Below, piece by piece: positions 17,117 through 58,350 of a DNA stretch of 64,000 nt. A program made the translations under genes and the position numbers. Below the pieces are notes generated by a model. That model saw only the letters and a list, made by a program, of their open reading frames with translations. It did not search any database and had not been told where the DNA came from. Source of the stretch: a bacterium (GTDB lineage: Bacteria; Desulfobacterota; JAPLJL01). Position 1 is the first letter of the stretch; each line of letters starts with the position of its first letter. The stretch spans positions 54-64,053 of the forward strand of contig JAQTNV010000016.1 in NCBI GenBank assembly GCA_028713675.1, read 5' to 3'.

Positions 17117-17125
17117 GATTCAAAA

Positions 17126-17240
17126 TTGTCAGTTATCAGTTTTTAGTTATTAACTGTCATCTATCAGCTTCCAACCAAATAACGGACTTTGAAGTTTGAA
17201 CTTTAAACCTTGAACCTTGAACTTTGAACGCTGAACTTTG
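17126..17240. repeat. Heptamer arrays (TTATCAG; CTTTGAA/CCTTGAA)
   Basis: gtcagttatcagtttttagttat; ctttgaagtttgaactttaaaccttgaaccttgaactttgaacgctgaactttg. Confidence 0.85.
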
Positions 17241-35649: not shown

Positions 35650-37251
35650 TTATATTAACGATGCCGGATCGATCACGAACGCCGGTTGTCCACTGGCCAG
35701 GGTAATCACGCCGATCACCCCCGGCAATCGATTCAGGGGCGGGCCCAGCGGCCGGACCACGGCTTCCATAAAATTCCCGATCTGATTTATTCCCAGGGCT
35801 ATCATTTTCTCATCCCGGCCTTCCGTAACCAGCGCCGCCCTGAATCCATTCTCTTTTTCGCTCCACCCCAATACCTTCGCCAACGGGAAAACCGGAATCC
35901 AGGAGTCGCCGGGTTCGATCGCGCCTTCAAATTGGACCGCCTTCATGATTCTATTTACCGGAATGGCGCAAATCTCGTTCTCCAGCTTTACCGTAAGCAG
36001 TTTCAGGATCGCCGCCGAAACCGGGAGCTTGATCTCAAACCGGCTCCCCTTTCCCGGGATGGAACCGATATTCAGGCTTCCTCCCATTCTTTTAACGGTC
36101 TGGTAAACCAGGTCCATCCCCACTCCCCGGCCCGAAACCCCGGTCACCTTTTCCGCGGTGCTGAAGCCGGGAGAGGTAATTAGAAACAAGGCCTCGGCGT
36201 CCGAAAGACCGGCGGCCTTTTCCGCCGTCAGGAAACCTTTTTCCACCGCCCTTTCTTTCAGCCGGGCCGGATCCATTCCTTTCCCGTCATCTTCAATCCG
36301 GATGATGACCCAGTCCCGCTTGCGCTCCGCGGAGACCTGCAGTTTACCCGCCGGAGGTTTGCCCCGGGCGGTCCGGTCTTCCGCCGTTTCGATTCCATGA
36401 TCCACCGCGTTCCGGATGATATGGAAAAGAGGGTCCTGGATCGCCTCGACCAGGGACCGGTCCAGCTCCACGTCCTCTCCCCGGCAGGAAACCTCCACTT
36501 TTATCCCTTTCCCGCGGGAAAGATCCCGAACCAGGCCGGGAACCCGGGAAAGAACCAGGTCCAGAGGCAGGAGACGCAGGTTAAGAACCCCCTGGTATAA
36601 GCCGGACATGACCCGGTTGAATTTCCGAAATTCCGGCTCGTTTTCCTCGATCAAGCCATTTTCGCCCGTCCCGGCATGGAAACCGCCGCCTTCCTTTTTT
36701 ATGGCCCGGAGGCTTTCTTCCCACTTGTTTTTAATCAGAATGATTTCGCTCAAGGAACCGAGGACATAATCCAGGAAGGCCGGATCGATCCGGACCTGGG
36801 GGGTAAGCATGGCCGACGATTCCTGATAATCCTCGAAATTAACCCCGGTGCCCTCCGGACTTTTTATCGGGGTGGGAGACTCACCGATAATTTTTCTCTT
36901 GATTAATTGTTCCAACCCGGAGAGAGACTGGTAGAGAAAATCGACGATTTTGGACATCTTCCCCAAAATCTCGCCCGCGGCGCCGGCCGCAGCGGTCTTT
37001 TCGCCCTTTTGCAGCTCCGCCCGCAGGCTTTCCAGGCGGTCCTCCATCCGATGGGCCAGCTCGGCGACGTCGGAAAAACCCATCGTCCCGGACATCCCCT
37101 TTATAGAATGCGCGACGCGAAAAAGCCGGTGGATAATCTCGATATTACCCGGTTCTTTTTCCAGCTCGGGGACGAGCTTCCTCATCACCTCGAGCTTGAT
37201 CTCGGCTTCACTGAAAAAAAGCGTTCGAAATTTATTGAGATCGAGTTCCAT
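35650..37251 (-). CDS. cheA: Chemotaxis histidine kinase CheA
   Basis: Hpt LFRVAHSIKG; DPLFHIIRNAVDHGIE; EDDGKG; SGRGVGMD; C-terminal CheW-like domain. Confidence 0.93.
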   Translation of the reverse strand: MELDLNKFRTLFFSEAEIKLEVMRKLVPELEKEPGNIEIIHRLFRVAHSIKGMSGTMGFSDVAELAHRMEDRLESLRAELQKGEKTAAAGAAGEILGKMSKIVDFLYQSLSGLEQLIKRKIIGESPTPIKSPEGTGVNFEDYQESSAMLTPQVRIDPAFLDYVLGSLSEIILIKNKWEESLRAIKKEGGGFHAGTGENGLIEENEPEFRKFNRVMSGLYQGVLNLRLLPLDLVLSRVPGLVRDLSRGKGIKVEVSCRGEDVELDRSLVEAIQDPLFHIIRNAVDHGIETAEDRTARGKPPAGKLQVSAERKRDWVIIRIEDDGKGMDPARLKERAVEKGFLTAEKAAGLSDAEALFLITSPGFSTAEKVTGVSGRGVGMDLVYQTVKRMGGSLNIGSIPGKGSRFEIKLPVSAAILKLLTVKLENEICAIPVNRIMKAVQFEGAIEPGDSWIPVFPLAKVLGWSEKENGFRAALVTEGRDEKMIALGINQIGNFMEAVVRPLGPPLNRLPGVIGVITLASGQPAFVIDPASLI

Positions 37252-37326
37252 TCTTATCTCTGGTCTCTGGTCATTGTTAGCAAAGGGCAAAGGGCAGAGA
37301 GCATAGGGTTTAATTCGAAACCTTTT

Positions 37327-37452
37327 TGTCTCTTGTCTCTTGTCTCTTGTCTCTTGTCTCTTGTCTCTTGTCTCTTGTCTCTTGTCTCTTGTCTCTGGTC
37401 TCTGGTCTCTGGTCTCTGGTTAACTCGAAACTCGAAACCCGAAACCCGAAAC
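37327..37452. repeat. TGTCTCT x10 + GGTCTCT x3, followed by an AAACTCG array
   Basis: Direct count at 37327-37417, then taactcgaaactcgaaacccgaaacccgaaact overlapping the cheW 3' end. Confidence 0.92.
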
Positions 37453-39721: not shown

Positions 39722-41302
39722 TCACATCGCTTGTTCTTTCGCGTTTTCTTCCTCGAACTTTACCCCTGAGGACTTCATGATCCGGCGGAAATTGCTGCGG
39801 TCGAGCTCGGCCTTCCGGGCGGCCTCGGACATATTTCCGTCCGCCTGCGAAAGTAATCGGCCGAAATACACCTGGTGAAACCTGTCCAAGGCCTGGGACT
39901 TGGCTTCCTTGTAGCCCAGATTGACCAGTTCGCCCCACTCATCGTCTTTCCGCAGGGGCTTGAGCTCACGGCTCAGGATCGCGGGCGGAAGATCGGAGGG
40001 ATGAATCGTTTCCCCTTTTTGCACGATTACCGCGTGCTCAATCGCGCTCGCCAGCTCCCGAACGTTGCCGGGCCAGGGGTAATCCAGGATGATTTTCATC
40101 GCTTCGGGGGATATCTGCTTAAGTTCGGGACCGATTTTCCGGCAGGAGCGGGTTAAGAAATGACGGGTAAGAATGGGGATATCATCGACCCTTTCCCGGA
40201 GGGGGGGGAGATGAATGGTAACCACGCTCAACCGGTAGAAAAGGTCCTCCCGGAATTTCTTTTCCGCGACGGCCCGGGAAAGGTCCTTGTTACTGGCGGC
40301 GATAACCCGGACATCCACCTTGATGGATTCGTTCCCGCCAACCCGCCGGATTTCCCCTTCTTGGAGAGTCCGGAGCAGTTTGGCCTGGACCGTAAATGGT
40401 ATCTCGGCCACCTCATCCAGGAAAATCGTGCCCCCGTTAGCCGCCTCGAAAAATCCGGCCCGGCGGGTGTTGGCCCCGGTGAACGAGCCCTTTTCGTGGC
40501 CGAAAAGCTCGCTCTCGAAAAGGCTCTCAGTAATAGCGGAACAATTAAAGGGAATGAAGGGTTTGCTCTTTCTCGGGCTCAGGGAATGCAGGGCCTTGGC
40601 TACCAGCTCCTTACCCGTCCCGCTCTCACCCTGGATCAGAGCGGTGGTATCGGTGGCCGCCAGCCTCTCGGTCAACTGGTAGACCGGAAGCATTTTAGCG
40701 CTCTGCCCGATCAGGCCGGCGAATGATTCCGGCTTGCCCGCCTCCGCTTCGAGTTTCTGTGTTTTGAAGACCAGGGCGCGGTGCTCCAGGGCTTTTTCCA
40801 CCGAGATGTTCACTTTCTCGATCGGGTCGAAAGGCTTGGTCAGGAAATCGTAAGCCCCCAGGCGCACCGCCTCGACCGCCTGTTCCATTGTCCCGAAACC
40901 GGTCATCATGATCACCTCGATTTCGGGATACTGCAGTCGGACCCTCCGGAGCACCTCCATTCCCGAGGGTCCTGGCATTTTCAGATCAAGCAGGATCACG
41001 GAGACCCGGTCGGGATCGGCTTCCAAATATTTCAGGGCCTCGTCCCCCCTCCGGGCCAGTGTCACCTCGTGCCCGGATGAGGAAAGTACCAGGTTGATCA
41101 CCTTTAAAATGGCTTCCTCGTCGTCCACAACCAGAATGACAGGTTTCGAGTTTCGGCCTGCCCGAGCCGATGGCTCGTGTCGGCCAGGGGTTTCTGGTTT
41201 CGAGTTCAACTCGAGCACAGCCGAGAGGCTGGCCTTTTCCCTGTTGGTCTGTCCAACTGCTGATCTGTTGGACTGCTGGTCTTTAGTCATTTTTTCCATC
41301 AT
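39722..41302 (-). CDS. Sigma-54-dependent REC-AAA+-HTH activator (NtrC/AtoC family)
   Basis: GESGTGKELVA, ESELFGHEKGSFTGA, FLDEV, FREDLFYRL, WPGNVREL. Confidence 0.95.
   Translation of the reverse strand: MMEKMTKDQQSNRSAVGQTNREKASLSAVLELNSKPETPGRHEPSARAGRNSKPVILVVDDEEAILKVINLVLSSSGHEVTLARRGDEALKYLEADPDRVSVILLDLKMPGPSGMEVLRRVRLQYPEIEVIMMTGFGTMEQAVEAVRLGAYDFLTKPFDPIEKVNISVEKALEHRALVFKTQKLEAEAGKPESFAGLIGQSAKMLPVYQLTERLAATDTTALIQGESGTGKELVAKALHSLSPRKSKPFIPFNCSAITESLFESELFGHEKGSFTGANTRRAGFFEAANGGTIFLDEVAEIPFTVQAKLLRTLQEGEIRRVGGNESIKVDVRVIAASNKDLSRAVAEKKFREDLFYRLSVVTIHLPPLRERVDDIPILTRHFLTRSCRKIGPELKQISPEAMKIILDYPWPGNVRELASAIEHAVIVQKGETIHPSDLPPAILSRELKPLRKDDEWGELVNLGYKEAKSQALDRFHQVYFGRLLSQADGNMSEAARKAELDRSNFRRIMKSSGVKFEEENAKEQAM
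41157..41188 (-). mobile_element. 32-bp CCTGGCCG...CTCGGGCAGG micro-element inside the activator 5' coding region
   Basis: Minus strand aaacC[cctggccg acacgagccatcgg ctcgggcagg]Ccgaaac; 32+1 = 33 nt, which keeps the frame. Confidence 0.65.
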
Positions 41303-41465
41303 TCCCCCGTTTTCCTTAGTTTCGAGTCTCGGGTTTGTGGTTTCTAGTTAATAAACCTTGAACATCTTTTCCTTCTTGTTGCTAACCCAAAACTCGAAAC
41401 TTGTTTTCTTTGGTTCAACTCAAAACTTGGTTTTTCCCCTCTTTTATTTAACTCGAGACTCGAAA

Positions 41466-42170
41466 CTATTTTTTCTTGTCCAGTCCGCATGATTCTTGGA
41501 ACCCCCTGATCGCATCCCTCCCCCGAAGGCACGCGCTTTCAATCTCCTTGAGCTCTTCGACCGGGGCTCCCTCCTCCTTTTGATATAAAATCAGCTGGGT
41601 ATTGGCGAGAATGGCGCAGAGAATGTTGTTAAGTTCATGCACCATCTTGTCCGTCATTAGCCGGAGCCCGTCAGAGGCGTCGTCCGGTTTCGCGGGTTCT
41701 ATGGGTTTCAGGTTTTCTTCCTGGGAATTCGAAGGCAAGTCCCGCTTTTGGCCCGTCCGGTAAAATTCCAGTGCCTGCCAAATGATTTCCTTCAGGTCCT
41801 GGTCATTCCAAGGCTTGGTCATCAGTTTAAAAATCCTGCATTTATTGATGGAATCCTCGGCCACCCCAAAATCTGCGTAACCGGTGAGAAGAATACTTAT
41901 GGTTCGCGGGGACACTATCCGCGCCTTTTCCAAAAGTTCCGTCCCATACATCCCCGGCATCCGGTGGTCGGAAATGATCAGGGCGACTTCCTCTTTGAGC
42001 AGAATTTCCAGTGCCTCCATCCCTGACGACGCCGTGAGTAGGTTGAAATCCTCCTTTCGGAGCGAACGTTTGAGGGCGTTCATCACCAGCTCCTCGTCAT
42101 CAACGAGCATAACGTTAAGTTTCGAGTTTCGAGTTTCTGGCTTCGGGTTCATTTCGTTAGGAGCGTTCAT
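41466..42170 (-). CDS. REC domain plus HisKA-like helix pair, without an ATPase domain
   Basis: MLVDDEE, IISDHRMP, KPW; C-terminal KMVHELNNILCAILANTQL, then stop. Confidence 0.85.
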   Translation of the reverse strand: MNAPNEMNPKPETRNSKLNVMLVDDEELVMNALKRSLRKEDFNLLTASSGMEALEILLKEEVALIISDHRMPGMYGTELLEKARIVSPRTISILLTGYADFGVAEDSINKCRIFKLMTKPWNDQDLKEIIWQALEFYRTGQKRDLPSNSQEENLKPIEPAKPDDASDGLRLMTDKMVHELNNILCAILANTQLILYQKEEGAPVEELKEIESACLRGRDAIRGFQESCGLDKKK

Positions 42171-42329
42171 TTGGTCTATCTCGTCTGTCTGGTTTATTTG
42201 GTTTATTTGGTTTCTCTGGTTTATTTGGTTTAACCCGAAACTATTCGCAAGGCTGAAGCCTTGCCCTACTTTCTGGTTTCTCTAGTTTCTTTGGTTTTCA
42301 TTCCGCAATCCGCAATCCGAAATCCGCGA

Positions 42330-45300
42330 TTATTGGTCTCCTATTACTTGTTTAATGACTTCCGCCATTTCCTCAAAACGATAAGGCTTGGCGATAACCC
42401 CGCGGAAGCCGTATTTCCGTGGATCCGACATGATCGGGTCGTTGGAGTAGCCGCTGGAAACGATTACTTTCACCTGGGGATCAATCTCGATTAATTTCTG
42501 AACGGCGATTTTGCCTCCCATCCCTCCCGGAATGGTGAGGTCCATTATCACCGCGGCGAACGGATGGGACGATTCCCCGGCCTTTTGATAAATCTCGATG
42601 GCTTCCTGCCCGTCCTTGGCGAATTCCACCTCATAACCGATTTGTTTCAACATTCTCCCGGTGACTTTCTGCACCATCAGCTCATCATCCATCACCAAGA
42701 CCCGCTTGGTCCCGTTGGTCTTTTCGAGCATGGGTTTAGCCTCTTCCCGGCCGTTTTCCCGGCGGGCAGGAAGATAAACGGAAAAGGTCGCGCCCCGTCC
42801 CGGGGTCGAATCCACCGTAATATGCCCTTCATGCCGTTTGATGATCGAGTAAACCGCCGAAAGACCGAGGCCGCTCGATTCTGGCCGGGTGGTGAAAAAC
42901 GGGTCGAAGATCTTCGACAGGTTTTCCGGGGTGATTCCCTTCCCCGAGTCGCGGAAACTGATCTTCACGTATTCCCCTTCCGAAAGATTGTCTCCGAATT
43001 CCTTCCCGACTCTCACGTTTTTCGCCCGGACTCCTATTTTTCCGCCTTCCGGCATGGCTTGGACGGCGTTGATCACCAGGTTGCTGACCACCTGTCCTAA
43101 TTGACCCGCATCCACCTCCACCGGCCATAGGTTTTCCGGCAAAATATACTCGCATTCCACCCGGGAGCCGGAGAGGGCCATCTGGACGTCGACTTTAATT
43201 AATTGTCCGATCGCCATCTGCTTTTTGATCGGGGTTCCGCCCCGGGAAAAGGTAAGTAATTGTTGGACCAGGCCGCTGGCCCGGTGGGAAGCGGTCTCCA
43301 CGTCTTTTAACAGTTCATGCATCTCACTCTGGGAATCGGTGGTGTTTAAGGCCACGGAGACATTCCCCAGGATCGCGGCCAGGAGATTATTGAAATCGTG
43401 AGCGATCCCCCCGGACAATACCGCGAGGGACTGGAGCTTTTCGTTCTTCAGCAGTTCCTCTTCCATCTTCTTCTTTTCGGTAATATCCCGGGAAATCAGC
43501 AATATGTTAAAACCGTCGGGCTTTTCGATCAGGTCGGCGGTAGTTTCCAGTTGACGAATCTCTCCATACTTGTCGATAATCCGGTAGATTAACCGCTCGG
43601 GATTTTTCCCATGTTTCAGGCGGGCAAGCTCCTCGTCGGGGGAAAAGATGAACTTCATAATCGCCGGCAGGATTTTGTCCCGGTCTTCCGGATGAATAAA
43701 ATCAAGGGAATTGTTCCCGATAAGCTCATCGGGTTTAAAACCCAAACGCTTATAGGAACTGCTCGCGTAAGTAAATTCCCCCGTCTCGTTGATAATAGTG
43801 ATGAAATCGGAGGTGTTTTCCGAAATCAGACGTAAACGCTCCTCGCTCCGATGCAGAGCTTCTTCCGCCTTTTTGCGATCGGTAACATCACGAGAAACAA
43901 ACAAAATATTAAAATCCCCGGTTTCATTGTTTGGCACAATATTTGTAGTTGATTCCAGGTAATGAATATTCCCGGATTTATCATCAACCCCGTAAATATA
44001 ACGATCAGAATTTCCTTCTTTTAACATCCTATCCAAATCCTCTTTTTCCACTTGAATCAATAATTGCAATAACGAGTTGATTTTTTCCTTATCAACCGCG
44101 CTCACAAAATCCAATACCGGTTTTCCGACAATTTCTTTGAGATCGTAACCAAGCAGCTGGTGGGAAGGGCTGGCATAAAGCATTATCCCTTTCCGATTGA
44201 TTATGTTGATGAAGTCCGAGGCATTTTCCGTAATCAGGCGGAAGCTCTCCTCACTCCGGCGCAGGGCTTCTTCCGTATTTTTGCGCTCGGTTATATCCTG
44301 TCCCTGGGCAATGGTGGAAAGCAGTGTCTTGCCATCCTCGCCGTATACGTTCGCCGAATTCCAGAGTACCCAACGCACTTCCCCGGTCTTGCGTTGGATC
44401 GGGATCTCCACCGTCTCCCAGAACTTCCCCGTAGCCGTACGATCAATCTCCAATAGGGAAGACTCCTTGCTCTCCGCGGGGAAAAGCATCTCCAGGTCCC
44501 GGCCGATTACCTCCCCGACGGCATAACCGGTCATCCGCTCAAAAGCCCGGTTGAATCGAGTGATTTTCCTGGCCGGATCCCAGACAATTACCGGAGCGTT
44601 GGAATACGCCAACAGCTTTTCCAGATAATCCCGGGTCGTCCGCAGTTCCTCTTCCGCCTGTTTACGCTCGGTGTTGTCATGAAAAAATCCCATCAAATAT
44701 TTTTTCCCAGCACTTGTAACGATTGTAGAATTAATGTCGGCATATAAAACAGTGCCGTCTTTTCTCTTTACGGGTAAATCCCGAGCTGAAACTATTTCTC
44801 CTTTGGCCTGCTTCTCAAATTGAGCGATAACATAGGGAATATCTTTTTCCGGATGAATATCCATCACCCCTAAATTATGAATTTCTTCCGGGCTGTAGCC
44901 GAGCATCCGGCAAATCGCGTTATTACCCATAAGAAATGTCTTCTTCTCTATATCGGCTACCATTATTCCATCTCCGGCACTATCAAAAATATTTTCGAAC
45001 CTTTCCGCTGATTCCCTTACTCTCTCCTCCGCCTTCTTCCTCTCGGTAATATCCCGGACGATGGCCTGCAAAGCCTGCTTTCCTCCGATTTCGATCCGGC
45101 TGAGCAAAACCTCGGCTGGAAACACCGTCCCATCAATGCGTTGATGCAGCCATTCAAAGGATTGGCCGCCAGTCGTGAACGCCGCTTCAATGCGTTCCTG
45201 GGCAGCGGTCATTGAATCCTTGCCATCCGGCTGGATTGGTGGCGATAACTCGCTGGGATGTTTGAAAATGAATTGATCACGGGATGAGCAACCGAAAACA

Positions 45301-46265
45301 TTAAGAGTAGCCCGATTGCAATCCAGAAATCCCTGGCGGTCCAAGGTCATGATCGCGTCCCGGGACGATTCGAACATGGCGCGGAACTTGTCTTCGCTTT
45401 CCCGCAAGATGTTTTCCATCCGCTTGCGCTCGCTGACATCCCGGGCCAGGCTTAAAACCGACGCCACCCGGCCGTCTTCAAAAATCGGGACAGCGTTTAT
45501 CTCAATTTCAACGATTTTGCCCTGGGAGTTGCGGACCTTCAGATTCAGGCCATCAACCGAATGACCCTGGCGCAGTCCATCAGCGAGGCTAACCAACTCT
45601 TCCTGGTTGTCTCCGGCAAAGTAATCCAGGTAACTCTTCTTTTTAAGTTCCCCGAGTGAAACATCGAAAACCTTGAGTACAGCGGGATTCGCGTCCAGAA
45701 AAGCCCCATTCACATCGTTGATGTAAATATAATCCGGGCTGTTGTTGAAAACCGAGCTATATTTTTCCTCGCTTAGCCTCAGCCTTTCGGCGATGCGCTT
45801 GTTCTCGGTGATGTCCCGCATCACATGAACCGAACTGACGACCCGGCCGGAATCGTCAAGTATCGGGCTGGTGGAAACGAGAAAATCTTTTTTCAGACCG
45901 GGATGACTGATTTCTGCCGAATGCGCTTTGCCGTCCGCCATAGTTTGCTGATGAACGCAAGTTCTAATCGGACAGTCGGTCCCGTGGATTAATCGAAAAC
46001 ATTGTTTGCCGATAATTTCTTTGAATGGAAGTCCCAGCATTTTGCTGGTCGCCATATTTACTCGCGCAATTCGATGATCCAGGTTAATCAGCATTACCGA
46101 ATCTTCCATGGCATCAAACGTTGTTCTCCATTCATCCGAGGCATGCTTCAGTTTTCCAACCATTTCCTTCCGCCGGATGATATCGCGTTCGACAGCCGTC
46201 CCTTTTAACAAGCGTGGATTTTTATTTAATATTTTCCCGTCTTTTTTCTTTTTTCCCGGCATCAT
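42330..46265 (-). CDS. Cytoplasmic multi-PAS hybrid histidine kinase (about 7 PAS, HisKA, HATPase, REC)
   Basis: Repeated RD(I/V)(T/S)ERK PAS termini; GIAHDFNNLL; NLVINAVQAM; GLGLS; VMDDE...MDLTIPG. Confidence 0.95.
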   Translation of the reverse strand: MMPGKKKKDGKILNKNPRLLKGTAVERDIIRRKEMVGKLKHASDEWRTTFDAMEDSVMLINLDHRIARVNMATSKMLGLPFKEIIGKQCFRLIHGTDCPIRTCVHQQTMADGKAHSAEISHPGLKKDFLVSTSPILDDSGRVVSSVHVMRDITENKRIAERLRLSEEKYSSVFNNSPDYIYINDVNGAFLDANPAVLKVFDVSLGELKKKSYLDYFAGDNQEELVSLADGLRQGHSVDGLNLKVRNSQGKIVEIEINAVPIFEDGRVASVLSLARDVSERKRMENILRESEDKFRAMFESSRDAIMTLDRQGFLDCNRATLNVFGCSSRDQFIFKHPSELSPPIQPDGKDSMTAAQERIEAAFTTGGQSFEWLHQRIDGTVFPAEVLLSRIEIGGKQALQAIVRDITERKKAEERVRESAERFENIFDSAGDGIMVADIEKKTFLMGNNAICRMLGYSPEEIHNLGVMDIHPEKDIPYVIAQFEKQAKGEIVSARDLPVKRKDGTVLYADINSTIVTSAGKKYLMGFFHDNTERKQAEEELRTTRDYLEKLLAYSNAPVIVWDPARKITRFNRAFERMTGYAVGEVIGRDLEMLFPAESKESSLLEIDRTATGKFWETVEIPIQRKTGEVRWVLWNSANVYGEDGKTLLSTIAQGQDITERKNTEEALRRSEESFRLITENASDFINIINRKGIMLYASPSHQLLGYDLKEIVGKPVLDFVSAVDKEKINSLLQLLIQVEKEDLDRMLKEGNSDRYIYGVDDKSGNIHYLESTTNIVPNNETGDFNILFVSRDVTDRKKAEEALHRSEERLRLISENTSDFITIINETGEFTYASSSYKRLGFKPDELIGNNSLDFIHPEDRDKILPAIMKFIFSPDEELARLKHGKNPERLIYRIIDKYGEIRQLETTADLIEKPDGFNILLISRDITEKKKMEEELLKNEKLQSLAVLSGGIAHDFNNLLAAILGNVSVALNTTDSQSEMHELLKDVETASHRASGLVQQLLTFSRGGTPIKKQMAIGQLIKVDVQMALSGSRVECEYILPENLWPVEVDAGQLGQVVSNLVINAVQAMPEGGKIGVRAKNVRVGKEFGDNLSEGEYVKISFRDSGKGITPENLSKIFDPFFTTRPESSGLGLSAVYSIIKRHEGHITVDSTPGRGATFSVYLPARRENGREEAKPMLEKTNGTKRVLVMDDELMVQKVTGRMLKQIGYEVEFAKDGQEAIEIYQKAGESSHPFAAVIMDLTIPGGMGGKIAVQKLIEIDPQVKVIVSSGYSNDPIMSDPRKYGFRGVIAKPYRFEEMAEVIKQVIGDQ

Positions 46266-46304
46266 TTACTCCTTAATTTTCTCTGATATGTCTGGTCTTT
46301 TTTA

Positions 46305-46632
46305 GCAAGGAGCAGGGAGCATGGCGCATAGGGTTTACCCCAAAACCAGAAACCTGGATTCCTGCTTTCCTTCGATCATACTCAGGACAAGTCGCAGTAA
46401 TGACGTTATGATTTTTCATTCGTCTTTTATTGTTTGGTTTTCACTCCGCATATCTCAGCAAGGTTGAAGCCTTGCCCTACATTTCCCCTTGGACCCTCGA
46501 ACCCTATTTTCTTTCTTCGCAGCCTAAAGGCTGCGGCTACCTTGGACTCTATTTTTTCTCTGCTCTTACCCTTGAACCCTGGAACCCTGTTTTTTTTCCA
46601 TTCCGCAATCCGCATTCCGCAATCCGCAATTA
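46305..46632. repeat. Intergenic block: heptamer arrays, hairpin with 22-bp insert, GTAG REPs
   Basis: ctggattcctgcttTC[46370-46391]TCgcag; gcaaggttgaagccttgccctac at 46458-46480; gcagcctaaaggctgcggctac at 46519-46540; tccgcaa array. Confidence 0.85.
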
Positions 46633-46635
46633 CCG

Positions 46636-48531
46636 TTATTCTCCCGTTGGGAGAAAAACGGTAAATCTCGTTCCTTCCCCGACCTTGCTGTCCACCTCGA
46701 TCCGACCTTTATGCTTCTCGACAATCCCATAGGCCACCGAAAGACCGAGCCCGGTTCCCTCTCCGGGGGCCTTGGTGGTAAAGAACGGATCGAAAATCCG
46801 GGGAAGATTCTCTTCCGGAATCCCGGCGCCGGTGTCATTTATCTCCACTCCCACATTTCCGTCCTGGGCGAAGGTCCTGATCCTGATCTCGCCCCGCTTG
46901 GGAATCGCCTGGGCGGCGTTGACCAGGAGGTTTAAAAACACCTGGTTCAGTTCCCCGGGTATACCCATGACGCTGGGAATGTCGCCGAATTCCCGAATTA
47001 CTTCGGCTTTATACTTGAGCTCGTTATTGATTACCGTCAGGGTCTCTTCAAGCCGTTCGTTCAGGCTAACCGGCTCGGGCTTTCCCGAATCCGCCCGGGC
47101 AAAGGCCTTGAGGTTTTTCACGATCTTGGAAACCCTCTCTGTCCCCTGCCGGGTTTCGTCCACCAGCCTCCCAAGGTCCAAGACCAACCCGTCAAGATTC
47201 ATCTTCCGCCCGAGTTCGTCCAGCTCCCGGGCCAACCCGGCGATTTTCACCCGGTCGTTTTTTTTCCAGGCGGAGAGGAACTCCGTCTGCCGGGAAATCA
47301 ACCCGAGTAGATCCTGAAAATACTCATGGAGGGAATTCAGGTTCGACTGGATATATCCGATCGGGTTGTTGATCTCATGGGCCACCCCCGCGGCCAACTG
47401 GCCCAGGCCGGCCAGTTTTTCCGATTGGATCAACTGGGCCTGGGCGTGCTTCAACTGCGCGTTCGATTTTTCCACATCGCCTAATGCTCGGGAAAGTTCG
47501 CGGGTTCTTTCCTTCACCCGCGACTCGAGTTTTTCATGCGACTTTTTAAGGTCATCAGTGATCCGGGCATTTTCGATCGCCACCGCGATATGGGGGCCGA
47601 AGGAAAGCAGAAGCCCAAGGTCGGATTCCGAAAAAGCTCGGCCGTCTTTACGGTTGATCACCTCGATCACCCCCACCACCTTCCCCCGTACGAGAAGTGG
47701 GGCAGCCAAGAGCGAGCGGGTCTGAAAACCGGAGTTCCGGTCAAAGTTTTTATCGAAGCGGGAATCCCGGGAGGTATCGGGGACGAGGAGAGGCATCCTT
47801 TCCGCCGCCACCCACCCGGCGACTCCCTGACCAAGCTTGATGGTCTGGTGTTCAAGTTTTTCCGCCCTAGGTCCCAAAGCCACCGCGATCCTGAGTTCCT
47901 GACCGCTCTCGTCCAAAATCATTAATGAAGAAGCCTCGGCCTGGAGCAGGTTCTGGGTATGCTCCATTACCAGGTTTAAAAGGGGGTCGAGTTCCAGCGT
48001 GGAGGTAATCGTGGTGGAGATCCGCCCGATCAGCTCCAACTGGCGGACCTGGCCGACGAGTTCGCCCACCAAGCGGCGGTTTTCCGCCCGGAGATCGAAC
48101 TTTTCCCTCCCCCGGCGGACGGCGTTCGCCAAGTCTTCCGGCTGAATAGGCTTGACCACATAATCGTATGCCCCCGAATGAATGGCTTCGACCGCAGTGT
48201 CTAGGCTGGCATGGGCGGTGATGATAAGAACCGAGGTGTCCGGGCAGATCTCCAGGAACTGGGGCAGGATCTTGATCCCGTTTTCATCCCCGAGAAACAG
48301 ATCAAGGAGGACCACCCCGGCCGGATTTGCCCGGAAAGCCTCGATCGCTTCCGTGACTGTTCCGAAGGCGGAAACCCGGTAGCCGGCCTTGCGTAATATT
48401 TCGGAATATACCTCCCGCAAAAAAAGATCATCATCCAATATCAAAACATCAAAAGACAGTTTCGAGTTTCGAGTTTCGGGTTTCGGGTTGTCAGTTTCGA
48501 GTTTCTGGTTCATTTCGTTAGGAACGCTCAT
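46636..48531 (-). CDS. REC-GAF histidine kinase
   Basis: LILDDD, LLDLFL; GAF ([16 protein letters not shown]); GVAHEINNP; NLLVNAAQA; GTGLGL. Confidence 0.93.
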
Positions 48532-48633
48532 TTGGTTTCTTTGGTTTCTGGTTTCTGGTTTCTTGTTAAATACCTTGGGTATCTTTTTCTTTTTTTTCTA
48601 ACTCGAAACTCGAAACTACAAACTCGAAACTAT

Positions 48634-49137
48634 TTATATAAGGATGTTTCCCTTCTCGTCCTTCTCTACCATACCGATTCCCGGGTGCTCCAACTCCAGG
48701 TCTTTCAGGATCTGCTTTTGTTTATTAACCTCCGCGGACAGGGCCCGGTTTTCGCGCTGGATCTTGAGATGCTCCAGGGCCAGGCGGATCGTGATCCGCA
48801 GATCCTGGTCGTCCCAGGGCTTGGTCAGGAACCGGTAAACCCCCGCCGAATTGATGGCCTCAATCGCCGCCTCCATGTCGGCATGACCGGTCAGGATAAT
48901 CCGGATGGTATCCGGGTAATCGGCGGCGACCCGTTTCAGGAACTCGACGCCGTCGTGCACCGGCATCTTGTAATCGCTGATTATGAGGTCGATCGGGCTC
49001 GCATAAAGCTTGTTTAATCCCTCCATCGCGGAGCCGGCGATCAAAACCTCATATGACTCCTTCCGAAGCGACCGGGCCAGGGCATTCAAGACGTTCACCT
49101 CATCATCAACCAAGAGGACTTTATATGCCTTTTCCAT
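48634..49137 (-). CDS. Response regulator (REC)
   Basis: LLVDDE, IISDYKMP, ILTGHAD, KPW. Confidence 0.92.
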   Translation of the reverse strand: MEKAYKVLLVDDEVNVLNALARSLRKESYEVLIAGSAMEGLNKLYASPIDLIISDYKMPVHDGVEFLKRVAADYPDTIRIILTGHADMEAAIEAINSAGVYRFLTKPWDDQDLRITIRLALEHLKIQRENRALSAEVNKQKQILKDLELEHPGIGMVEKDEKGNILI

Positions 49138-49227: not shown

Positions 49228-49343
49228 AGCAATGCTTGTGCCAGGTATAAATAGACTGGGTAAAAACTGTCACCGACGGTGATAATGTTTGATGGAGCCC
49301 TGACATCCGGGTCACAATTTACCCAGGGAGTCACAATCGACCC
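49228..49343 (-). promoter_or_regulatory. Sigma-54 promoter with tandem enhancer sites
   Basis: TGGCACAAGCATTGCT at 49243-49228; GGGTC-ACAATT-TACCC at 49309-49324 and GAGTC-ACAATC-GACCC at 49328-49343. Confidence 0.82.
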
Positions 49344-49349
49344 ATGCAA

Positions 49350-50165
49350 ACATCTGTTTCGGGTTTCTAGTTTCTGGTTTCGGATTGTCAGTTTCGAGTT
49401 TCTGGTTTCGAGTTTCGAGTTTTAAATCTAATTTATTAATCTGATTTTCTTGGTCTTTTTGGTTCATTTGAATCTTTTTGATTAACCGGAATCTAAAAAC
49501 AACTTTTTATTCCCTTGTTTTAACTAGAAAATAGAGACGAGAAACTCAAAACTTGGTTTTCCCTTCTTTTATTTCAACTCGAAACTGTCTTCATCGTTTT
49601 TATTCAGTACTTCTTTGTTGCCTTAAACCCGAAGCTGTTTTTATTGTCCGCTGAACAATCTCCACACCAGAACCGCCCCGATCGCCAAAGCAAAAAGGAC
49701 CGGATAAAGCACCTCCTTGCTGAAAATCTGCCTTTCCAACCTCCGGCGGCGGTGATGGCGCCTTCCGATTGCGGAATGCGGATTTCGGATTGCGGATTGG
49801 CTATTTGTTATTTCGGCCTGTCCGTTACCTTGATCAGTCAGGGATTGATCGTTCTCAATCGTTGAGGTGATTTCTTTGCTCTCCATCTGTTTTCTCCGGT
49901 TTTTTTAGTCTCTGATCTTGGGCCATTGTTAGCAAAGGGCATAGGGTTGAGAGCAAAGGGTTAAAGAACGAATCTGGATTCCCGCTCCCGCGGGAACGAC
50001 GTTATGATTTTTCATTCCGCATTCCGCAATCCGCAATTCCCTAGACCCCTCGAACCCTTTCTTCGCAAGGCTGAAGCCTTGCCCTACTTGAATTACGCAA
50101 CCTAAAGGTTGCGGCTACCAACTTTCTTCGTTTTTCATTCCGCAATCCGCATTCCGCAATCATCA
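49350..50165. repeat. About 0.8 kb repeat-rich intergenic region (TTTCGAG, AAACTCG and TCCGCAA arrays; REPs at 49974-50001, 50065-50087, 50097-50118)
   Basis: Direct reading of multiple arrays and hairpins. Confidence 0.85.
49641..49886 (-). CDS. Small putative membrane protein with repeat-derived segment
   Basis: GGAGA RBS; Arg-rich RRHHRRRR followed by one TM helix; SQSAIRNPHSA encoded by a TCCGCAA array. Confidence 0.45.
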   Translation of the reverse strand: MESKEITSTIENDQSLTDQGNGQAEITNSQSAIRNPHSAIGRRHHRRRRLERQIFSKEVLYPVLFALAIGAVLVWRLFSGQ

Positions 50166-52701: not shown

Positions 52702-54051
52702 TTATTCGAACTTGTATTTTTTCAATTTATAAACGAGCGTGGTGCGATGTATACCCAGGTTCTTCGCGGCTAGGGATTTGTTGTTTTTGCACATCTTAAG
52801 AACATTTTGAATGTGTGCCTTTTCCGAACCTTCTAAGGATAAATCGGCTTTCCCGGTGGAAATTTCCCGGCTACTTACTCTCTTTCTGACCTCTTCGGGT
52901 AGATGTCCGGCCTGGATAACCCCTTCCGAGCAAATCAAGACCGCCCGCTCGATAATATTTCGCAATTCCCTGATATTCCCCGGCCAGTAATAAGAATGCA
53001 ATAAAACTTCCGCCTCTTCGGAAATTCCCGAAACGTTATGTTTGAGGGACCGGTTGAATTCCTCCAGCATGATCCGGGCTAATGGCAGGATATCTTCCCG
53101 CCTCTCCCGGAGCGGCGGAAGCCGGAGCGGCATTACCTTCAAGCGATAATAAAGATCTTCGCGGAACTTCTTCTCCTTGACCATTTCATCTAAGTCGATG
53201 TTGGAGGCGGCCATGATCCTGACATCCGCGTTGATATTTACCACCCCCCCGAGCCGCCGGAAGGACTTTTCCTCGATTACCTTGAGAAGCTTGGCCTGGA
53301 CGGAAAGCGAAAGATCCCCGATCTCGTCCAGAAAAACGCTTCCCCCGGCGGCCACTTCCAGGAGGCCGCGCTTCTGGCTTCTGGCATCGGTGAAAGCCCC
53401 GGCTTCATGGCCGAAAAGCTCGGATTCCAGCAGGTTCTCACTCAGGCCCGCGCAGTTGAGGTCCACGAAGGCTCTTTCCCGCCGATCGCTTAAATCATGG
53501 ATAATCCGGGAAATCATTCCTTTCCCGGTTCCCGTTTCCCCCAGGATTAATACGTTCACGGAGGATTTTTCGGAAAGTAATTTGATGCCACGGTAAATCT
53601 CCTCGGGCTGGCGGAGTTTAGAATATGTTTCCTTGCCTTCCAGCTTGGAAAGCTTTTCCCGGAGATACTGAGCCTCTATGCGCCGGGCGTAATTTTCCAG
53701 GCAGTTATTCACAATCACCAGCAGGGAAGCCAGCTCGATCGGCTTGAGGACGAAATTGTCCGCTTTCAGCTTGATCGCTTCGACCGCGGTTCTCACGTCC
53801 CCGTAGGCGGTAATGATAATCACCGCCTGGCCCGGAGAAATAGCCTTGATCTGCGACAATACTTCGAGCCCGGACAGGTCAGGAAGCTTGAGATCCAGAA
53901 GGACGATGTCTACGTGCCGGCTCCGGCAAATCTCGATGCCGCTTTTCCCATCGGCGGCGGTTTCGACGTTGAACCCCTGGGAGACGAAATACGTCTTCAG
54001 GTTCCGGCGGATGGAATCTTCATCGTCAACGATCAGAATGGTGTTGATCAT
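52702..54051 (-). CDS. Sigma-54-dependent REC-AAA+-HTH activator (AtoC-like)
   Basis: GETGTGKG, ESELFGHEAGAFTDA, FLDEIG, FREDLYYRL, WPGNIREL, Fis-type HTH. Confidence 0.95.
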   Translation of the reverse strand: MINTILIVDDEDSIRRNLKTYFVSQGFNVETAADGKSGIEICRSRHVDIVLLDLKLPDLSGLEVLSQIKAISPGQAVIIITAYGDVRTAVEAIKLKADNFVLKPIELASLLVIVNNCLENYARRIEAQYLREKLSKLEGKETYSKLRQPEEIYRGIKLLSEKSSVNVLILGETGTGKGMISRIIHDLSDRRERAFVDLNCAGLSENLLESELFGHEAGAFTDARSQKRGLLEVAAGGSVFLDEIGDLSLSVQAKLLKVIEEKSFRRLGGVVNINADVRIMAASNIDLDEMVKEKKFREDLYYRLKVMPLRLPPLRERREDILPLARIMLEEFNRSLKHNVSGISEEAEVLLHSYYWPGNIRELRNIIERAVLICSEGVIQAGHLPEEVRKRVSSREISTGKADLSLEGSEKAHIQNVLKMCKNNKSLAAKNLGIHRTTLVYKLKKYKFE

Positions 54052-54255
54052 ATGAATGCTCGTTTCGAGTTTCGGGTTTCGAGTTTCGAGTTCAGATTAA
54101 ACCCAATAATATTCAAATAACAGAGGCCATGAGTTCGAAACATCGTTTGTAATTTATTAGTCATATGAATGCTCGTCTCGAGTTTCGAGTTTCGAGTTTC
54201 GAGTTCAGATTAAACCCAAAAATAATCAAAAAACAGAAGTTATGAGTACGAAACC
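54049..54255. repeat. 113-bp-period tandem duplication containing a heptamer array and the start-codon context
   Basis: catatgaatgctcg...gagttcagattaaaccca...gag..cgaaac occurs at 54049 and at 54162. Confidence 0.9.
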
Positions 54256-54645
54256 TCATTTGTACTTGTTACCTTTTATTTCAGATCTCCGCAAATAATT
54301 CATCAAGCCGCCAGCCAATTTCCCCACTTCAGTTACCTTAACAAATAGCTGGTTAAAAGAATCCTGATTCAGATAACCCTGATCAAGGGCAACATAGAGT
54401 TGGCTTTTAACTTCACCGCTAGAACCTTTCGAAACGGAGAGAAATTGGATGAATTCCTTGGTCCCACCTCTCTCGAAACCTTCGGCTATGTTTGAAGTAA
54501 TTGAAACACAAGCTTTTCTCAATTGCTCTCGCAAACCGATATCTCTGTTGAATTTGCCTATATTTGACAAGGCGTAAATTTCATTGGTAAGTTCCCGACC
54601 TTTCTGCCAGGCTTCAATATCTTCGAAACATTTAAAGGTCGCCAT
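54256..54645 (-). CDS. Four helix bundle protein (23S rRNA IVS-protein / Avd-like family)
   Basis: FEDIEAWQKGREL, LREQLRKACVSITSNIAEGFERGGTKEFIQFLSVSKGSSGEVKSQL. Confidence 0.93.
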   Translation of the reverse strand: MATFKCFEDIEAWQKGRELTNEIYALSNIGKFNRDIGLREQLRKACVSITSNIAEGFERGGTKEFIQFLSVSKGSSGEVKSQLYVALDQGYLNQDSFNQLFVKVTEVGKLAGGLMNYLRRSEIKGNKYK

Positions 54646-54669
54646 CTTCTTTCTCCCTTCTTCCTTATT

Positions 54670-54767
54670 AGTTTCGGGTTTGTAGTTTCTAGTTTCTGGT
54701 TAAAAACTTTAAAACATTTATCATCTCTTTTATTTAACTCGAAACTCGAAACCCGAAACTCGAAACT
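54670..54767. repeat. Inverted heptamer arrays upstream of the four-helix-bundle gene
   Basis: agtttcgggtttgtagtttctagtttctggtt, AT-rich spacer, aactcgaaactcgaaacccgaaactcgaaact. Confidence 0.9.
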
Positions 54768-57700
54768 ATTTTATCGGTAGCTCCACGATAAACTTCGCTC
54801 CTTTTCCCGGTTCTGACTCCACCCGGATGTCGCCGCCGTGATCCAGGATGATCCGCCGGGAGATCGCAAGGCCCATTCCGTAGCTCCCCTTTTTGGTGGT
54901 GAAGAAAATCTCGAATATCTTATCCTTCATCTCCTTCGGAATCCCCGGGCCCATGTCCTTCATCGAGACAATCAGCGTTTTTCTCTTTTCGTCGGCCCTG
55001 GCTTCGATCTCGATGACATCCCCCTTCCCGGAAACCTCGATGGCGTTCTGCAAAAGGTTGATAAACACCTGGATCATCTCGCCCTTTTCCACCATCACCG
55101 GAGGCAAGTCCGGCGGCATCTTCTTTTCGACCTTTATTCCATTGACCTTCATTAATCCCGAATTCAGGGAAGCAACCTCATCCACGACTTCCCGCATGTC
55201 TACGGGGGCGAAAGCAATCTCGTTCAGAGCGCGATGGCGGCCGTAATCCAGAAGCTGTCTGACCAGGTAATCCATCCGGATGGTTTCCCTCAAAATAATT
55301 TCCAGGGTTTCTTTCTGAGCGCCCCCCAGTTTCAGGTGGTCGTGCAGGATCTCAATCCCGCTGGAAATCGCGAAAAGCGGGTTTTTGATCTCGTGAGCGA
55401 TATTACCGGCGATTTCCCCGATGGCGGCCATTCTCTCGGATTCCTTCAACCGTTTTTGGAGCTTTTTCTCCTCAGTGATATCGCGGGTCACATGGATCAC
55501 CCCATAACACTTATTTGCCGCGTTGAACATCGGGGTAGTCGTAATCAGGTAATCTCTCTGCAATCTCTCCGAGCGGACCATGTAGTTGCAGGATTTTCCC
55601 TCGGAAATACACCGCGATTGTCGGCAATATTCCGGGGGCGCGTCGGTCTTATGAATAAGGCGAAAGCATTGCTGTCCGATGATCTCGGGAAAGGAAAGCC
55701 CCAAAAAATCCGCCAGGGCCTGGTTGGCGCGGAGGATCCGGTAATTCAGGTCCTGCACCATGATCATATCGGGAATAGAGTCGAAAGTGATTCTCCAGGC
55801 GGTGGAGGCGTTTTTGATCATTTCCTCGGCTTGGATCTGTTCGGTAACGTCATGCAGGATCATCCCCAGTCCATCTCCTACCTTGAAAATGTCTATACAA
55901 ACGTATCTAAATTCCCCCATTGATACAGATATTTTCTGCCTCGACCGGTGAAAAGGCTTTCCCGTTTTCAATACATCCAGGTATTTGTCGAGCATATCGG
56001 AATCCCGAATCGTGGGAGAAACTTCGGTTAATTTTTTCCCGATCGCTTCCCGGCGGGAAAAGCGTTCGGCCAGCTCCGGGGATAGTGCCCGGTTGAAATC
56101 GACCAGGTTCAAATCCTGATCGAAAATATAGAAAAGGTCCGTCGCGGCGCAGGAAAAACGGCTCCATCGTTCCGTGATCACCTTTTTTTCCTCCTGAAGC
56201 CTTTTTAGCTCGGTGATGTCGACCACCGCGCCTTCAATGTGTTCCGTCCCCGGTATCATCTTGACCGAATAATTGACCCAGATTGGCGAGCCGTCGGCCT
56301 TTACCCCCCTGGCCTCGTAACCCGTGATCTCGCCGCTTTCTTTCAGTTTCCTGAGCAATCGTCTCTGATCGTCCAGATCGTTAAAATGCCGGGCCACCGA
56401 ATAATCCCGCAGGCATTCTTCCCGGCTTTTATAGCCGAGCATTCCGGCGAACCGCTCGTTGCATTCGATCACCTGCCCGTCGGTAATCCGGGTCCGGTAC
56501 AAGCCCACCTGTGCGTTATGGAAAAAGTTTCGATACTTCTCTTCGCTCAACCTTAGCTTATCTTCCGCCTGCTTAAGATCGGTGATGTCCTGCATAGTGC
56601 CAACAATCCGGTATGGGTGGCTTGATTGGTTACGGTATGCGACTGCGTGCTGGTTAATATGCTTGATCGTACCATCCGGCAGAAGAAGCCGAAACTGGAT
56701 TTCGGCATGATCTTCTTTTTCTAAAAGCAGATTGATAAAAGAATTGTTTTTATTCCGATCATCTGGATGAATCAAAGCCACGATACCATCGAAGGTGAGT
56801 GGTATTTCCCGGCCTAACCCGAACATTTGATATACCGTCTCAGACCAAGTCAATTTGTTGCCTTCAACATCCCAATCCCAGTTCCCGAGTTTGGCGATAT
56901 CCTGGGCCTGGACCAATTTATTTTCGTTCTCCTTTAGTATTTCCTCCGCCCGCTTGCGCTCGGTGATGTCGCGGGAAAAAACAAAAAGTCGGCCGCCGCT
57001 GATATCCATGAAATTGACGCTGATTTCGAAATCTATAATTTTTCCGTCTTTATGGCGGAGTTTGGTTTCAAAACGATCCCCTCCCGTTGCGATGATTTTT
57101 CTGATGCGAGCGCCGGTTTCTTCCGGTTTTTCCTCAACCACGATATCCGAAATCTTCATTCTCAGAAGTTCGCTACGGCTGTAACCAAGCATGCGGGAGC
57201 AGGCGTCGTTCGCCTCTTGAATATTTCCCTGCAGATCGTCAATCCAAAATCCGTCTATCGAAGTGTCAAGAATGGCCTTATATATCTCCTCGCTTTGGCG
57301 GAGACTATTTTCGGCCCGTTTCCGCTCGCCGATATCCCGGGCCAGGCTCAAAACCGATACCACCCGGCCGTCTTCAAAAATCGGTACCGCGTTTATTTCC
57401 ATTTCAATGATTTTGCCCTGGGAGTTTCGGGTCTTCAGATTCAGGCCATAAATCGGATGGCCCTGGCGCAGTTCATCAGCGAGGCGAATCAACTCTTCCT
57501 GGTTGTCTCCGGCAAAGTAATCCAGGTAACTCTTCTTTTTGAGCTCCTCGAGCGACACACCCAGAATTTTGAGCACCGCGGGATTCGCATCCAGAAAATT
57601 CCCATTCACATCATTGATGCAAATGAAATCCGGGCTGTTGTTGAAAATAAAGCGATATCTTTCCTCGCTTAGCCTCAGTCTCTCGGCAATGTTCTTTTGC

Positions 57701-57840: not shown

Positions 57841-57859
57841 TGCTCTCTCTCTAAATTTC

Positions 57860-58190
57860 TCTGGTCTATGAATGGCATAGGGCAAAGGGCATGGCGCAAA
57901 GAGCAGGGAGCATGGCGCAGGGAGCATGGCGCATATGATTTAACCCCAAACCAGAAACCTGGATTCCTGCTTTCCTTCGACCATACTCATGACAAGTCGC
58001 AGGAATAACTTTATAATTTTTCATTCGTCAGATTTTTGGGGCTCACTCGTCATTCGTCAATCGTCACTTCTTCTTCGGTTTTCATTCGTCATTCGTCAAT
58101 TCTTTTTTGTTTTTCATTCCGCAATCTACAATCCGCAATCCGCAATTCTTTCTAACTCGAAACTCGAAACTAGAGACTCGAAACTAGTAT
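57860..58190. repeat. Intergenic repeat block, paralogous to 46305-46420
   Basis: gggagcatggcgca arrays, ctggattcctgcttTC[57975-57996]TCgcagg, tcgtcat/tcgtcaa, tccgcaa and aaactcg arrays. Confidence 0.85.
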
Positions 58191-58277
58191 TACCCTGCCG
58201 ATTTCATAAAACTGGCAGATATAGGTGCCACAGGGAATATTGTCGACGATGCTTATCCCGAATTTTCTCATTTTCAT
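58170..58277 (-). pseudogene. Truncated N-terminus of a MEDS sensory domain
   Basis: MKMRKFGISIVDNIPCGTYICQFYE resembles the MEDS start R.SGI..IG..PWGTHFCQFY, then runs into a heptamer array and stops. Confidence 0.6.
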
Positions 58278-58350
58278 TTTCCAGAACTGATTGTAGTTGA
58301 TTATTTTATTCATTGTATTCCGAATAGATAATTTATCAATTAAAAAAAAG

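Follow-up and report, generated by a model that had tools for sequence, protein, structure and literature searches.

Can a repeat whose unit is seven nucleotides long persist inside a protein-coding gene, where the gain or loss of a single unit shifts the reading frame, and what would keep it there? This question is raised by a 64,000-nucleotide stretch of DNA from an uncultured landfill bacterium (assembly GCA_028713675.1, contig JAQTNV010000016.1; hereafter, “the window”), in which three genes on the minus strand, encoding a response regulator (RR), a REC-GAF hybrid kinase and a sigma-54 activator, carry heptamer arrays between their start codon and their REC domain. The usual view is that repeats whose unit is not divisible by three are either excluded from coding DNA or used as phase-variation switches. 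Here, we seem to be dealing with neither exclusion nor a switch: the heptamer modules are stable and in frame, and differ wholesale between strains that are otherwise >90% identical. Judging from the window and its relatives, each coding array forms the 3′ arm of an inverted-array module located between cistrons, and we consider it likely that these gene-proximal arms are translated in frame, dispensable, and filtered by selection for frame.

Relatives were gathered through homolog searches and cluster look-ups, which yielded many alleles at 78–92% protein identity, 13 of them with DNA. Array lengths in relatives and samples were taken from consensus contigs (Logan contigs for DNA runs), which hide rare variants. 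Arrays were searched as period-7 repeats in the window, and RNA folds were scored against dinucleotide shuffles (z). We distinguish family A, of the GAAACTC/AACTCGA type (peptide KPETRNS), family B, TCCGCAA (peptide NPQSAIR), and family C, found in the relative L016. A search of Joint Genome Institute (JGI) metagenomes for further alleles of the array–REC junction returned a match only to one contig already known. The features of the RR and kinase genes are the following.

41466–42170, minus strand: RR gene, REC plus a C-terminal helical region, 234 aa (P0001; open reading frame (ORF) and translation, Pfam REC at residues 20–130).
42153–42170, minus strand: native 5′ leader of the RR gene, ATGAACGCTCCTAACGAA (MNAPNE); the same 18 nt open an array-free RR allele in L009.
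42118–42152, minus strand: second ATG of the RR gene and one 32-nt family-A heptamer module (4 units + 4 nt); orthologs have 4, 10 or no units there.
42232–42242, minus strand: short 5′-arm remnant AGTTTCGGGTT, complementary to the beginning of the RR coding array (sequence and centroid fold).
46636–48531, minus strand: REC-GAF-HisKA-HATPase hybrid kinase gene, 631 aa (P0002; ORF, Pfam; the public annotation starts at the same ATG).
48514–48531, minus strand: native 5′ leader of the kinase gene, ATGAGCGTTCCTAACGAA (MSVPNE); in L016, ATGAGCGCTCCGAAC abuts ATATTGATTTTGGATGAC, giving MSAPN-ILILDDD.
48458–48513, minus strand: second ATG of the kinase gene and a 53-nt family-A array of 7 units, the 3′ arm of the junction hairpin (inverted pair I1; fold z = −5.87).
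48600–48631, minus strand: 5′ arm AGTTTCGAGTTTGTAGTTTCGAGTTTCGAGTT, 2 nt past the stop codon of the upstream RR gene (inverted repeat, fold, word depth).
48634–49137, minus strand: single-domain response-regulator gene lying upstream, its stop codon adjoining the 5′ arm (gene order kept in L001, L014, L015 and L016).

Both genes are built alike at their 5′ end. The RR gene runs from an ATG at 42170–42168 through a second ATG at 42152–42150 and the array AACCCGAAGCCAGAAACTCGAAACTCGAAACT (42149–42118) into TAACGTTATGCTCGTTGATGAC, which encodes REC β1, and the predicted peptide across this boundary reads array residues followed by LNVMLVDDEELVMNALK. The kinase gene repeats the order (ATG 48531–48529, second ATG 48513–48511, array AACCAGAAACTCGAAACTGACAACCCGAAACCCGAAACTCGAAACTCGAAACT at 48510–48458, then GTCTTTTGATGTTTTGATATTGGATGATGAT), and its codons after the array are CTG TCT TTT GAT GTT TTG ATA TTG GAT GAT GAT. 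In each case the array, with its 7-nt unit, starts 3 nt after an ATG and 18 nt after the first ATG. REC profile position 1 (Pfam PF00072, full-length match) falls right after the arrays, at residue 20 of the RR, 29 of the kinase and 56 of the activator; in an AlphaFold2 model of the RR, β1 spans residues 19–23 while residues 1–18 form a low-confidence coil. An earlier reading of the window from its letters alone (the original prediction) had described just this layout, i.e., a common leader, then four versus seven units (a difference of 21 nt), then REC, and all of it is found on the minus strand. Its statement that the kinase has no alternative start before β1 is also borne out: there is no in-frame ATG, GTG or TTG from the leader to TTG-30, the first downstream candidate, which already lies within β1 and would give M-I-L-D-D-D.

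The leader consists of the native first 5–6 codons and is not part of the array. Its 16-mer TCCTAACGAAATGAAC occurs exactly twice in the window, at the RR and kinase starts only (0.04 expected), and RR alleles share the start context AAAYCAGATGRAY, with CAG replaced by CAA in the window. Because the leader directly opens array-free heads in L016 and L009, it is best read as the native start, with arrays inserted between approximately codon 6 and β1; the window kinase has 22 codons more than that of L016. Other origins of the shared leader were considered and set aside. A recent gene duplication is ruled out by the 27% identity of the two REC domains. As a dispersed element, the leader has one match only among GTDB genomes, a chance match at an unrelated proA/nadD junction, and its depth equals that of single-copy flanks. 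A high-copy mobile element carrying its own ATG is likewise unsupported by read depth; leader-plus-array modules do recur, however. An orphan 51-codon ORF at 49312–49467 (minus strand) consists of a leader and a two-module family-A array with no domain attached, and nearly equals the N-terminus of the kinase allele P0312; such modules seem to move between junctions.

What ties the coding arrays to the intergenic space is their partner arms. The kinase junction holds the best inverted repeat of the entire window, I1, which joins 48458–48489 to 48600–48631 over 32 nt at 88% complementarity. The upstream arm shows a word depth of 20–30× its flanks in four metagenomes and is therefore multi-copy sequence. 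All five alleles of this junction have arms of the same family on both sides: A/A in the window and L015, B/B in L001 and L014, and C/C in L016. The predicted folds are better than shuffles, with z = −9.1 in L014, where three coding modules pair with three upstream arms, −6.8 in L015, −4.9 in L001 and −3.3 in L016. As a separate observation, the family-B coding arm and spacer of L014 (1501–1750) are triplicated with a period of 63 nt, i.e., 9 heptamers or 21 codons, divisible by both 7 and 3.

The same arrangement recurs between the RR gene and the activator gene downstream, with the following features.

39722–41302, minus strand: sigma-54 activator gene (REC-AAA+), 526 aa, with a 55-residue N-terminal extension (P0003; ORF, Pfam, relatives).
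41139–41207, minus strand: translated repeat segment of the activator gene, made of a family-A remnant (41190–41207), a 32-nt hairpin micro-element (41157–41188) and family-A units (41139–41156).
41317–41468, minus strand: RR-to-activator junction with nested family-A arms, the 5′ arms at 41450–41468 and 41387–41404 and the 3′ arm at 41317–41335 in the 5′ untranslated region (UTR).

This junction contains the inverted pairs I20 (95% complementary, with a common GAGAC/GTCTC variant) and I23, and its fold (z = −5.02) also pairs the activator coding units with arms past the RR stop codon. It is A/A in the window, while L008, L009 and L012 have family-B arms on both sides and keep a family-A remnant. 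Even variant units co-vary between arms, GTCTC in one facing GAGAC in the other (41450–41468 and 41317–41335), in L006 as well as in the window. At the RR start itself, the remnant AGTTTCGGGTT pairs with AACCCGAAGCC… in the centroid fold; in L008, the 10-unit, two-module RR coding array pairs with two upstream modules (z = −10.3). In none of these cases does the whole palindrome lie inside an ORF: only the 3′ arm is coding, and the 5′ arm lies past the upstream stop. An Rfam scan of the locus matched no family, with a single sub-threshold chance match.

The activator head is the most composite of the three, reading …LELNSKPET-PGRHEPSARAG-RNSKPVILVVDD, the last part including RNSKP. The LNSKPET…RNSKP stretch noted in the original prediction is present, but the supposed in-frame 33-nt insertion is the 32-nt micro-element (41157–41188) plus one base. 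The activator Shine-Dalgarno (SD) sequence (GGGGGA), ATG and 30 codons are kept in the window, L008, L009 and L012, free of indels and stops in all four repeat architectures. In L008, a family-B array replaces the micro-element and the distal family-A units in frame, the proximal family-A remnant being retained; L012 combines a micro-element variant with family B in a 542-aa ORF from the conserved ATG; P0318 has another micro-element variant; and short-headed alleles reading MDKKKNGIGQILVVDD also exist, for a total of four extended architectures and one short. The micro-element itself (PGRHEPSARAG, minus strand) has variants at the same site, ASGPLGPTARRE in L012 (~612–650) and SLRPSRAYGPEG in P0318, all in frame, and its depth is ~10× that of its flanks in four metagenomes. 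These heads have also affected gene calling: the public annotation of the contig starts the activator at a GTG, the sole downstream in-frame candidate (P0319; MDDEEAIL, 468 aa; REC β1 lost), and the relative P0317 (L012) is annotated as MVDDEE despite its open 542-aa ORF. Both starts are probably mis-annotated owing to the repeat-built head.

If the arrays are translated, their lengths should matter. The distance from start ATG to DD motif is a multiple of three in all 13 alleles with DNA, and no protein-only allele is visibly frame-broken. Unit counts after ATGAAC are 4, 4, 7, 10 and 10, all of which keep the frame, so the survey of orthologs modulo 3 that the original prediction had proposed came out in its favor. 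Gene bodies are under purifying selection, with ratios of non-synonymous to synonymous substitution rates (dN/dS) of 0.086 for the kinase, 0.15–0.23 for the RR and 0.078 for the activator, at a synonymous divergence (dS) of ~0.4–0.55. Since all 13 alleles are in frame from conserved upstream starts, ahead of gene bodies with dN/dS of 0.08–0.23, the arrays are very probably translated and their frame is very probably kept by selection, as had been proposed.

The extensions themselves appear under little such constraint. The first 33 codons of the activator have a dN/dS of 0.40, i.e., they are less constrained than the body, and array-free alleles were found for all three genes. Kinase heads come in at least seven architectures, on kinases ≥90% identical: besides the window, MN followed by 10 family-A units (L015/P0315), MNQIGQENQINKLD plus family A (P0312), MKPETLNLKPSFD (P0310/P0313), one family-B module (L001/P0004/P0311), MNAPD plus family B (P0316), three family-B modules with a 63-nt period (L014/P0314), and MDQMSAPN-ILILDDD with no coding array and a family-C arm in the 5′ UTR (L016/P0309). 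RR heads show at least nine architectures among relatives, including four units (window, P0305, L006, P0308 and P0326), 10 units (L005, L008 and L010), no array (L007 and P0327, MDQDERLNV and MDQIDQKLNV), a 9-nt-period head MNAPNEPNATNDLNAERLNV opened by the window-type leader (L009), and other repeat-built types (P0130 and P0131); P0326 and P0327 are distinguished by a 30-nt in-frame insert. Given these array-free and varied heads, the extensions are, on comparative grounds, dispensable and hypervariable. Repeats also reach the other end of the gene: the RR alleles P0127, P0129 and P0326, unlike that of the window, have an alternative C-terminal tail, RNSF(E/G)(F/S)…, whose reading frame runs across the downstream 5′ arm and then a 3′ arm. 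Because these tails traverse arms, arrays would be translated at 3′ gene ends too.

Set against the rest of the window, coding arrays are the exception. We detected 48 period-7 arrays of at least six unit families (AACTCGA, ATTGCGG, ATTGACG, CTTTGAA, TTGTCTC and GCAKAGG), many of them exactly 32 nt long, and GAAACTCGAAAC occurs 46 times with ≤1 mismatch (0.66 expected). Modules of ~32 nt are the natural unit, and the 7- and 10-unit arrays each consist of two such modules linked by GAC. Word depth at arrays is 20–100× that of flanks in landfill and sediment metagenomes, while the leader is at single-copy depth. In mRNA sense, AGTTTCG-type arrays follow stops, and complementary CGAAACT-type arrays lie before or across starts. 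An array lies ≤120 nt upstream of the start in 13 of the 43 window ORFs. Within the first 40 codons, one was flagged in four ORFs only, which is why we treat coding arrays as exceptional: RR, kinase, 54766–57927, which we read as a first-ATG artefact, and 57989–58300, a plus-strand ORF that is probably spurious; the degenerate activator arrays went unflagged.

Three other places in the window deserve mention. The longest near-perfect array, 13 copies of TTGTCTC at 98% matches (37326–37417), lies in the 5′ UTR region of 35650–37251 (minus strand) and is the best candidate if any window array changes length by slippage. A short TCAGTTA array, the reverse complement of TAACTGA, adjoins an ACTTTGA array at 17124–17150. 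Finally, within 54030–54790 (minus strand), a TIGR02436 four-helix-bundle gene of the 23S-rRNA intervening sequence (IVS) type (54256–54645) is flanked on one side by a PAS kinase and on the other by a sigma-54 activator, with a family-A inverted pair before it and a 113-nt direct duplication after it that has a family-A array in each copy; this gene is a possible source or carrier of family-A arms.

These observations can be combined into a single scenario. Modules of ~32 nt and of several families occupy many gene junctions in this lineage, and in three REC-domain genes an arm has been inserted in frame between the native start, with 1 to 30 native codons, and REC β1, its same-family partner lying directly past the upstream gene's stop codon. 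The native ATG would initiate translation, and the ribosome would continue through the arm, the strand of which is T-poor and stop-free in every frame. The protein would thereby gain 10 to 80 polar residues at its N-terminus, a segment predicted to be disordered and located on the REC face away from the phosphorylation site. By analogy with the CheY fold, the REC N-terminus would lie opposite the active site, so that translation of the array may be incidental and tolerated, and the peptide may have no function of its own. Turnover from strain to strain would proceed by replacement of whole modules or whole junctions, and only 4, 7 or 10 units would be seen after ATGAAC because purifying selection removes frame-breaking lengths. 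At the RNA level, the paired arms may act as a hairpin that could serve intercistronic processing, mRNA stability, or coupling to upstream translation. In the last case, the 5′ arm would be melted by ribosomes as they terminate on the upstream gene.

Several points weigh against this scenario. The concordance of arm families could stem from the origin of the arms, by inverted duplication or whole-junction swap, and not from selection for pairing. The RR junction is the weakest of the three in the window, its fold being no better than shuffles (z = 0.03). A processing role fits poorly with coding-arm alleles, because an RNase III cut of the predicted stem would split the start codon from its ORF, and a search for RNA runs carrying the locus found none. 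The leader ATGs of the RR and kinase have no SD sequence, and neither do those of array-free alleles. Starts could also be placed at REC profile position 2, where an ATG or TTG would give MLVDDE in the RR and a TTG would give MILDDD in the kinase, and the public annotation of the activator, as described above, begins beyond the array at MDDEE.

The last of these points converge on an alternative in which the arrays are 5′ UTR: the RR and kinase would start at REC position 2 and the activator at a non-canonical or GTG codon. The T-poor strands of GAAACTC and TCCGCAA are stop-free in all frames, so the open frame could be a by-product, and where window genes have arrays, these mostly lie upstream of the start. 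At REC position 2, the RR of the window has an ATG; four orthologs have a TTG there, as do three kinase alleles. However, such starts (Met21 in the RR, Leu30 in the kinase) would truncate β1, removing two of its five residues, and the MDDEE start removes it entirely. In L002, L007 and L016, this TTG clearly lies inside the gene, and the leader ATG is the start of the array-free kinase of L016. The activator SD sequence, ATG and 30 codons stay intact across four repeat architectures, and about one-third of the alleles, rather than 13 of 13, would be expected in frame with the conserved upstream ATG if frame were irrelevant. We therefore regard untranslated arrays as improbable.

The original prediction had gone further than in-frame translation and likened the arrays to a contingency locus, in which a change of one unit turns the gene off. 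On a neuO-type model, slipped-strand events at high frequency would add or remove single heptamers in the 5′ coding arrays, turning the regulator and kinase on and off. The anatomy is indeed neuO-like, with a 7-nt array a few bases after the ATG so that a one-unit change shifts the frame (PMC3046976), and N-termini are hypervariable among close relatives. The arrays are, however, short and imperfect, with at most ~3 identical units compared to 2–93 perfect ones in neuO (PMC3046976): in the coding arrays, identical units follow one another at most ~2.7–3 times (GAAACTCGAAACTCGAAAC), and other units differ (CCGAAGC, CAGAAAC and TGACAAC). They are also stable. Arrays are identical in the Logan contigs of two landfill samples, with no 7-nt indel in the contigs of runs X1 and X2, and a 590-nt segment with the arms and the 10-unit array is identical in L005, L008 and L010, from three independent metagenomes, although these loci are otherwise 96.6% identical with 15 gaps. 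Between the window and L006, the 4-unit array kept its length across a dS of ~0.55, with substitutions accumulating in its units. Where alleles do differ, the change involves whole modules or the repeat family and in no case a single unit, and in consensus contigs from >10 metagenomes no out-of-frame allele was seen among ~40 alleles, ~13 of them array-bearing. The one candidate off-allele, P0304 (LLVDDE…), was ruled out as its contig starts inside the array. Finally, the genes encode cytoplasmic signalling proteins, not surface structures. Taken together, these patterns make a slippage-driven switch very unlikely.

Also very unlikely is the reading in which the array peptide has been selected on signalling proteins for a function of its own, as a tag that might direct localisation, dock a partner or mediate regulated proteolysis: three neighboring signalling genes do carry similar KPETRNSK peptides, and heptad number tunes enzyme activity in neuO (PMC3046976), but KPETRNS-type, NPQSAIR-type and array-free heads alternate on proteins ≥90% identical, the peptide follows the DNA repeat family, which matches the non-coding partner arm, the 33 leading codons of the activator evolve at a dN/dS of 0.40 vs 0.08 for its body, and in the rest of the window such arrays mostly lie outside coding sequence.

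If translated intercistronic arms are indeed the explanation, they illustrate a route from intergenic repeats to new disordered protein termini. The allele series, which runs from no arm through UTR arm to coding arm in families A, B and C, also offers natural material for testing the effects of heptamer hairpins on mRNA and translation. For annotation, the locus is a warning, as the GTG start of the activator deletes β1 and assemblies break inside arrays. We also considered an extension in which a lineage-specific active process, perhaps tied to the small IVS-type four-helix-bundle cassettes with the same arms, writes same-family inverted modules around translation start regions, the earliest codons included, and, with only in-frame products surviving, leaves each strain with a quickly reshuffled set of N-terminal extensions and of start sites enclosed by hairpins; this is a speculative and rather unlikely addition. 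If true, it would provide strain-to-strain tuning of the translation, coupling or stability of two-component proteins, distinct from slippage-based phase variation.

How does this locus compare with known heptamer repeats and in-gene repeats? The closest in anatomy is neuO of E. coli K1, the O-acetyltransferase gene of prophage CUS-3 with 2–93 perfect AAGACTC copies (Deszo et al. 2005; Schulz et al. 2011, PMC3046976). There too, a heptanucleotide array lies a few bases past the start and is translated as an unstructured N-terminal domain, with full-length protein made only at in-frame counts. In neuO, however, single units are gained or lost at a high rate and off-phase alleles are commonplace, whereas the arrays described here consist of 4–10 imperfect units in 32-nt modules, are stable and in frame, and each have an inverted partner array outside the gene.

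In their genomic distribution, the modules belong with the known short intergenic heptamer arrays, i.e., the cyanobacterial short tandemly repeated repetitive (STRR) sequences and the GGGAATC/GGGGAYT repeats of Xanthomonas and Nostoc (Rehm et al. 2015, PMC4692102), and the TAACTGA repeats of Beggiatoaceae, cyanobacteria and Bacteroidetes (MacGregor 2015, PMC4679880). Shared traits are lineage-specific 7-nt units, short arrays at gene boundaries (directly past stop codons or shortly before start codons), a preference for about four units, occasional inverted tandems, and a mostly non-coding location (PMC4692102, PMC4679880). These reports describe the repeats as under-represented in coding DNA, with few in ORFs and those in reverse orientation for TAACTGA (PMC4679880), in contrast to the in-frame insertion between start and first domain, the hypervariable N-termini and the arm-family concordance seen here.

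Two other systems place repeats within conserved proteins. Rickettsia palindromic elements (RPE) and repeats resembling miniature inverted-repeat transposable elements (MITE) are likewise multi-copy and selfish-looking; conserved genes tolerate them in frame, orthologs vary in whether they carry them, and the peptide segments they encode fall at tolerant positions (PMC10969869), except that an RPE brings its whole palindrome into the ORF, while here one arm lies in the ORF, its partner lies past the upstream stop, and the loop holds the host start codon. Borg tandem repeats (Schoelmerich et al. 2023, PMC9879509) resemble the arrays in being fast-evolving in-ORF repeats that add disordered polar segments to conserved proteins; their in-ORF units are divisible by three, unlike the 7-nt unit here, for which frame is kept by total insert length only.

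A precedent for an RNA-level role of heptamer hairpins comes from the (ATCTTTC)n array in the 5′ UTR of H. influenzae hmw1A, which, as would be the case here, forms one arm of an mRNA-leader hairpin and is processed by RNase III (Rapun-Araiz et al. 2025, PMC12721329). The hmw array differs in having at least 11 units, in being perfect, phase-variable and untranslated, and in pairing with a G-rich arm that is not a repeat, while the stems described here are predicted only. What is new at this locus is the combination: one inverted arm lying in frame between the start and the first domain, concordance of arm families across alleles, and at least seven alternative kinase heads.

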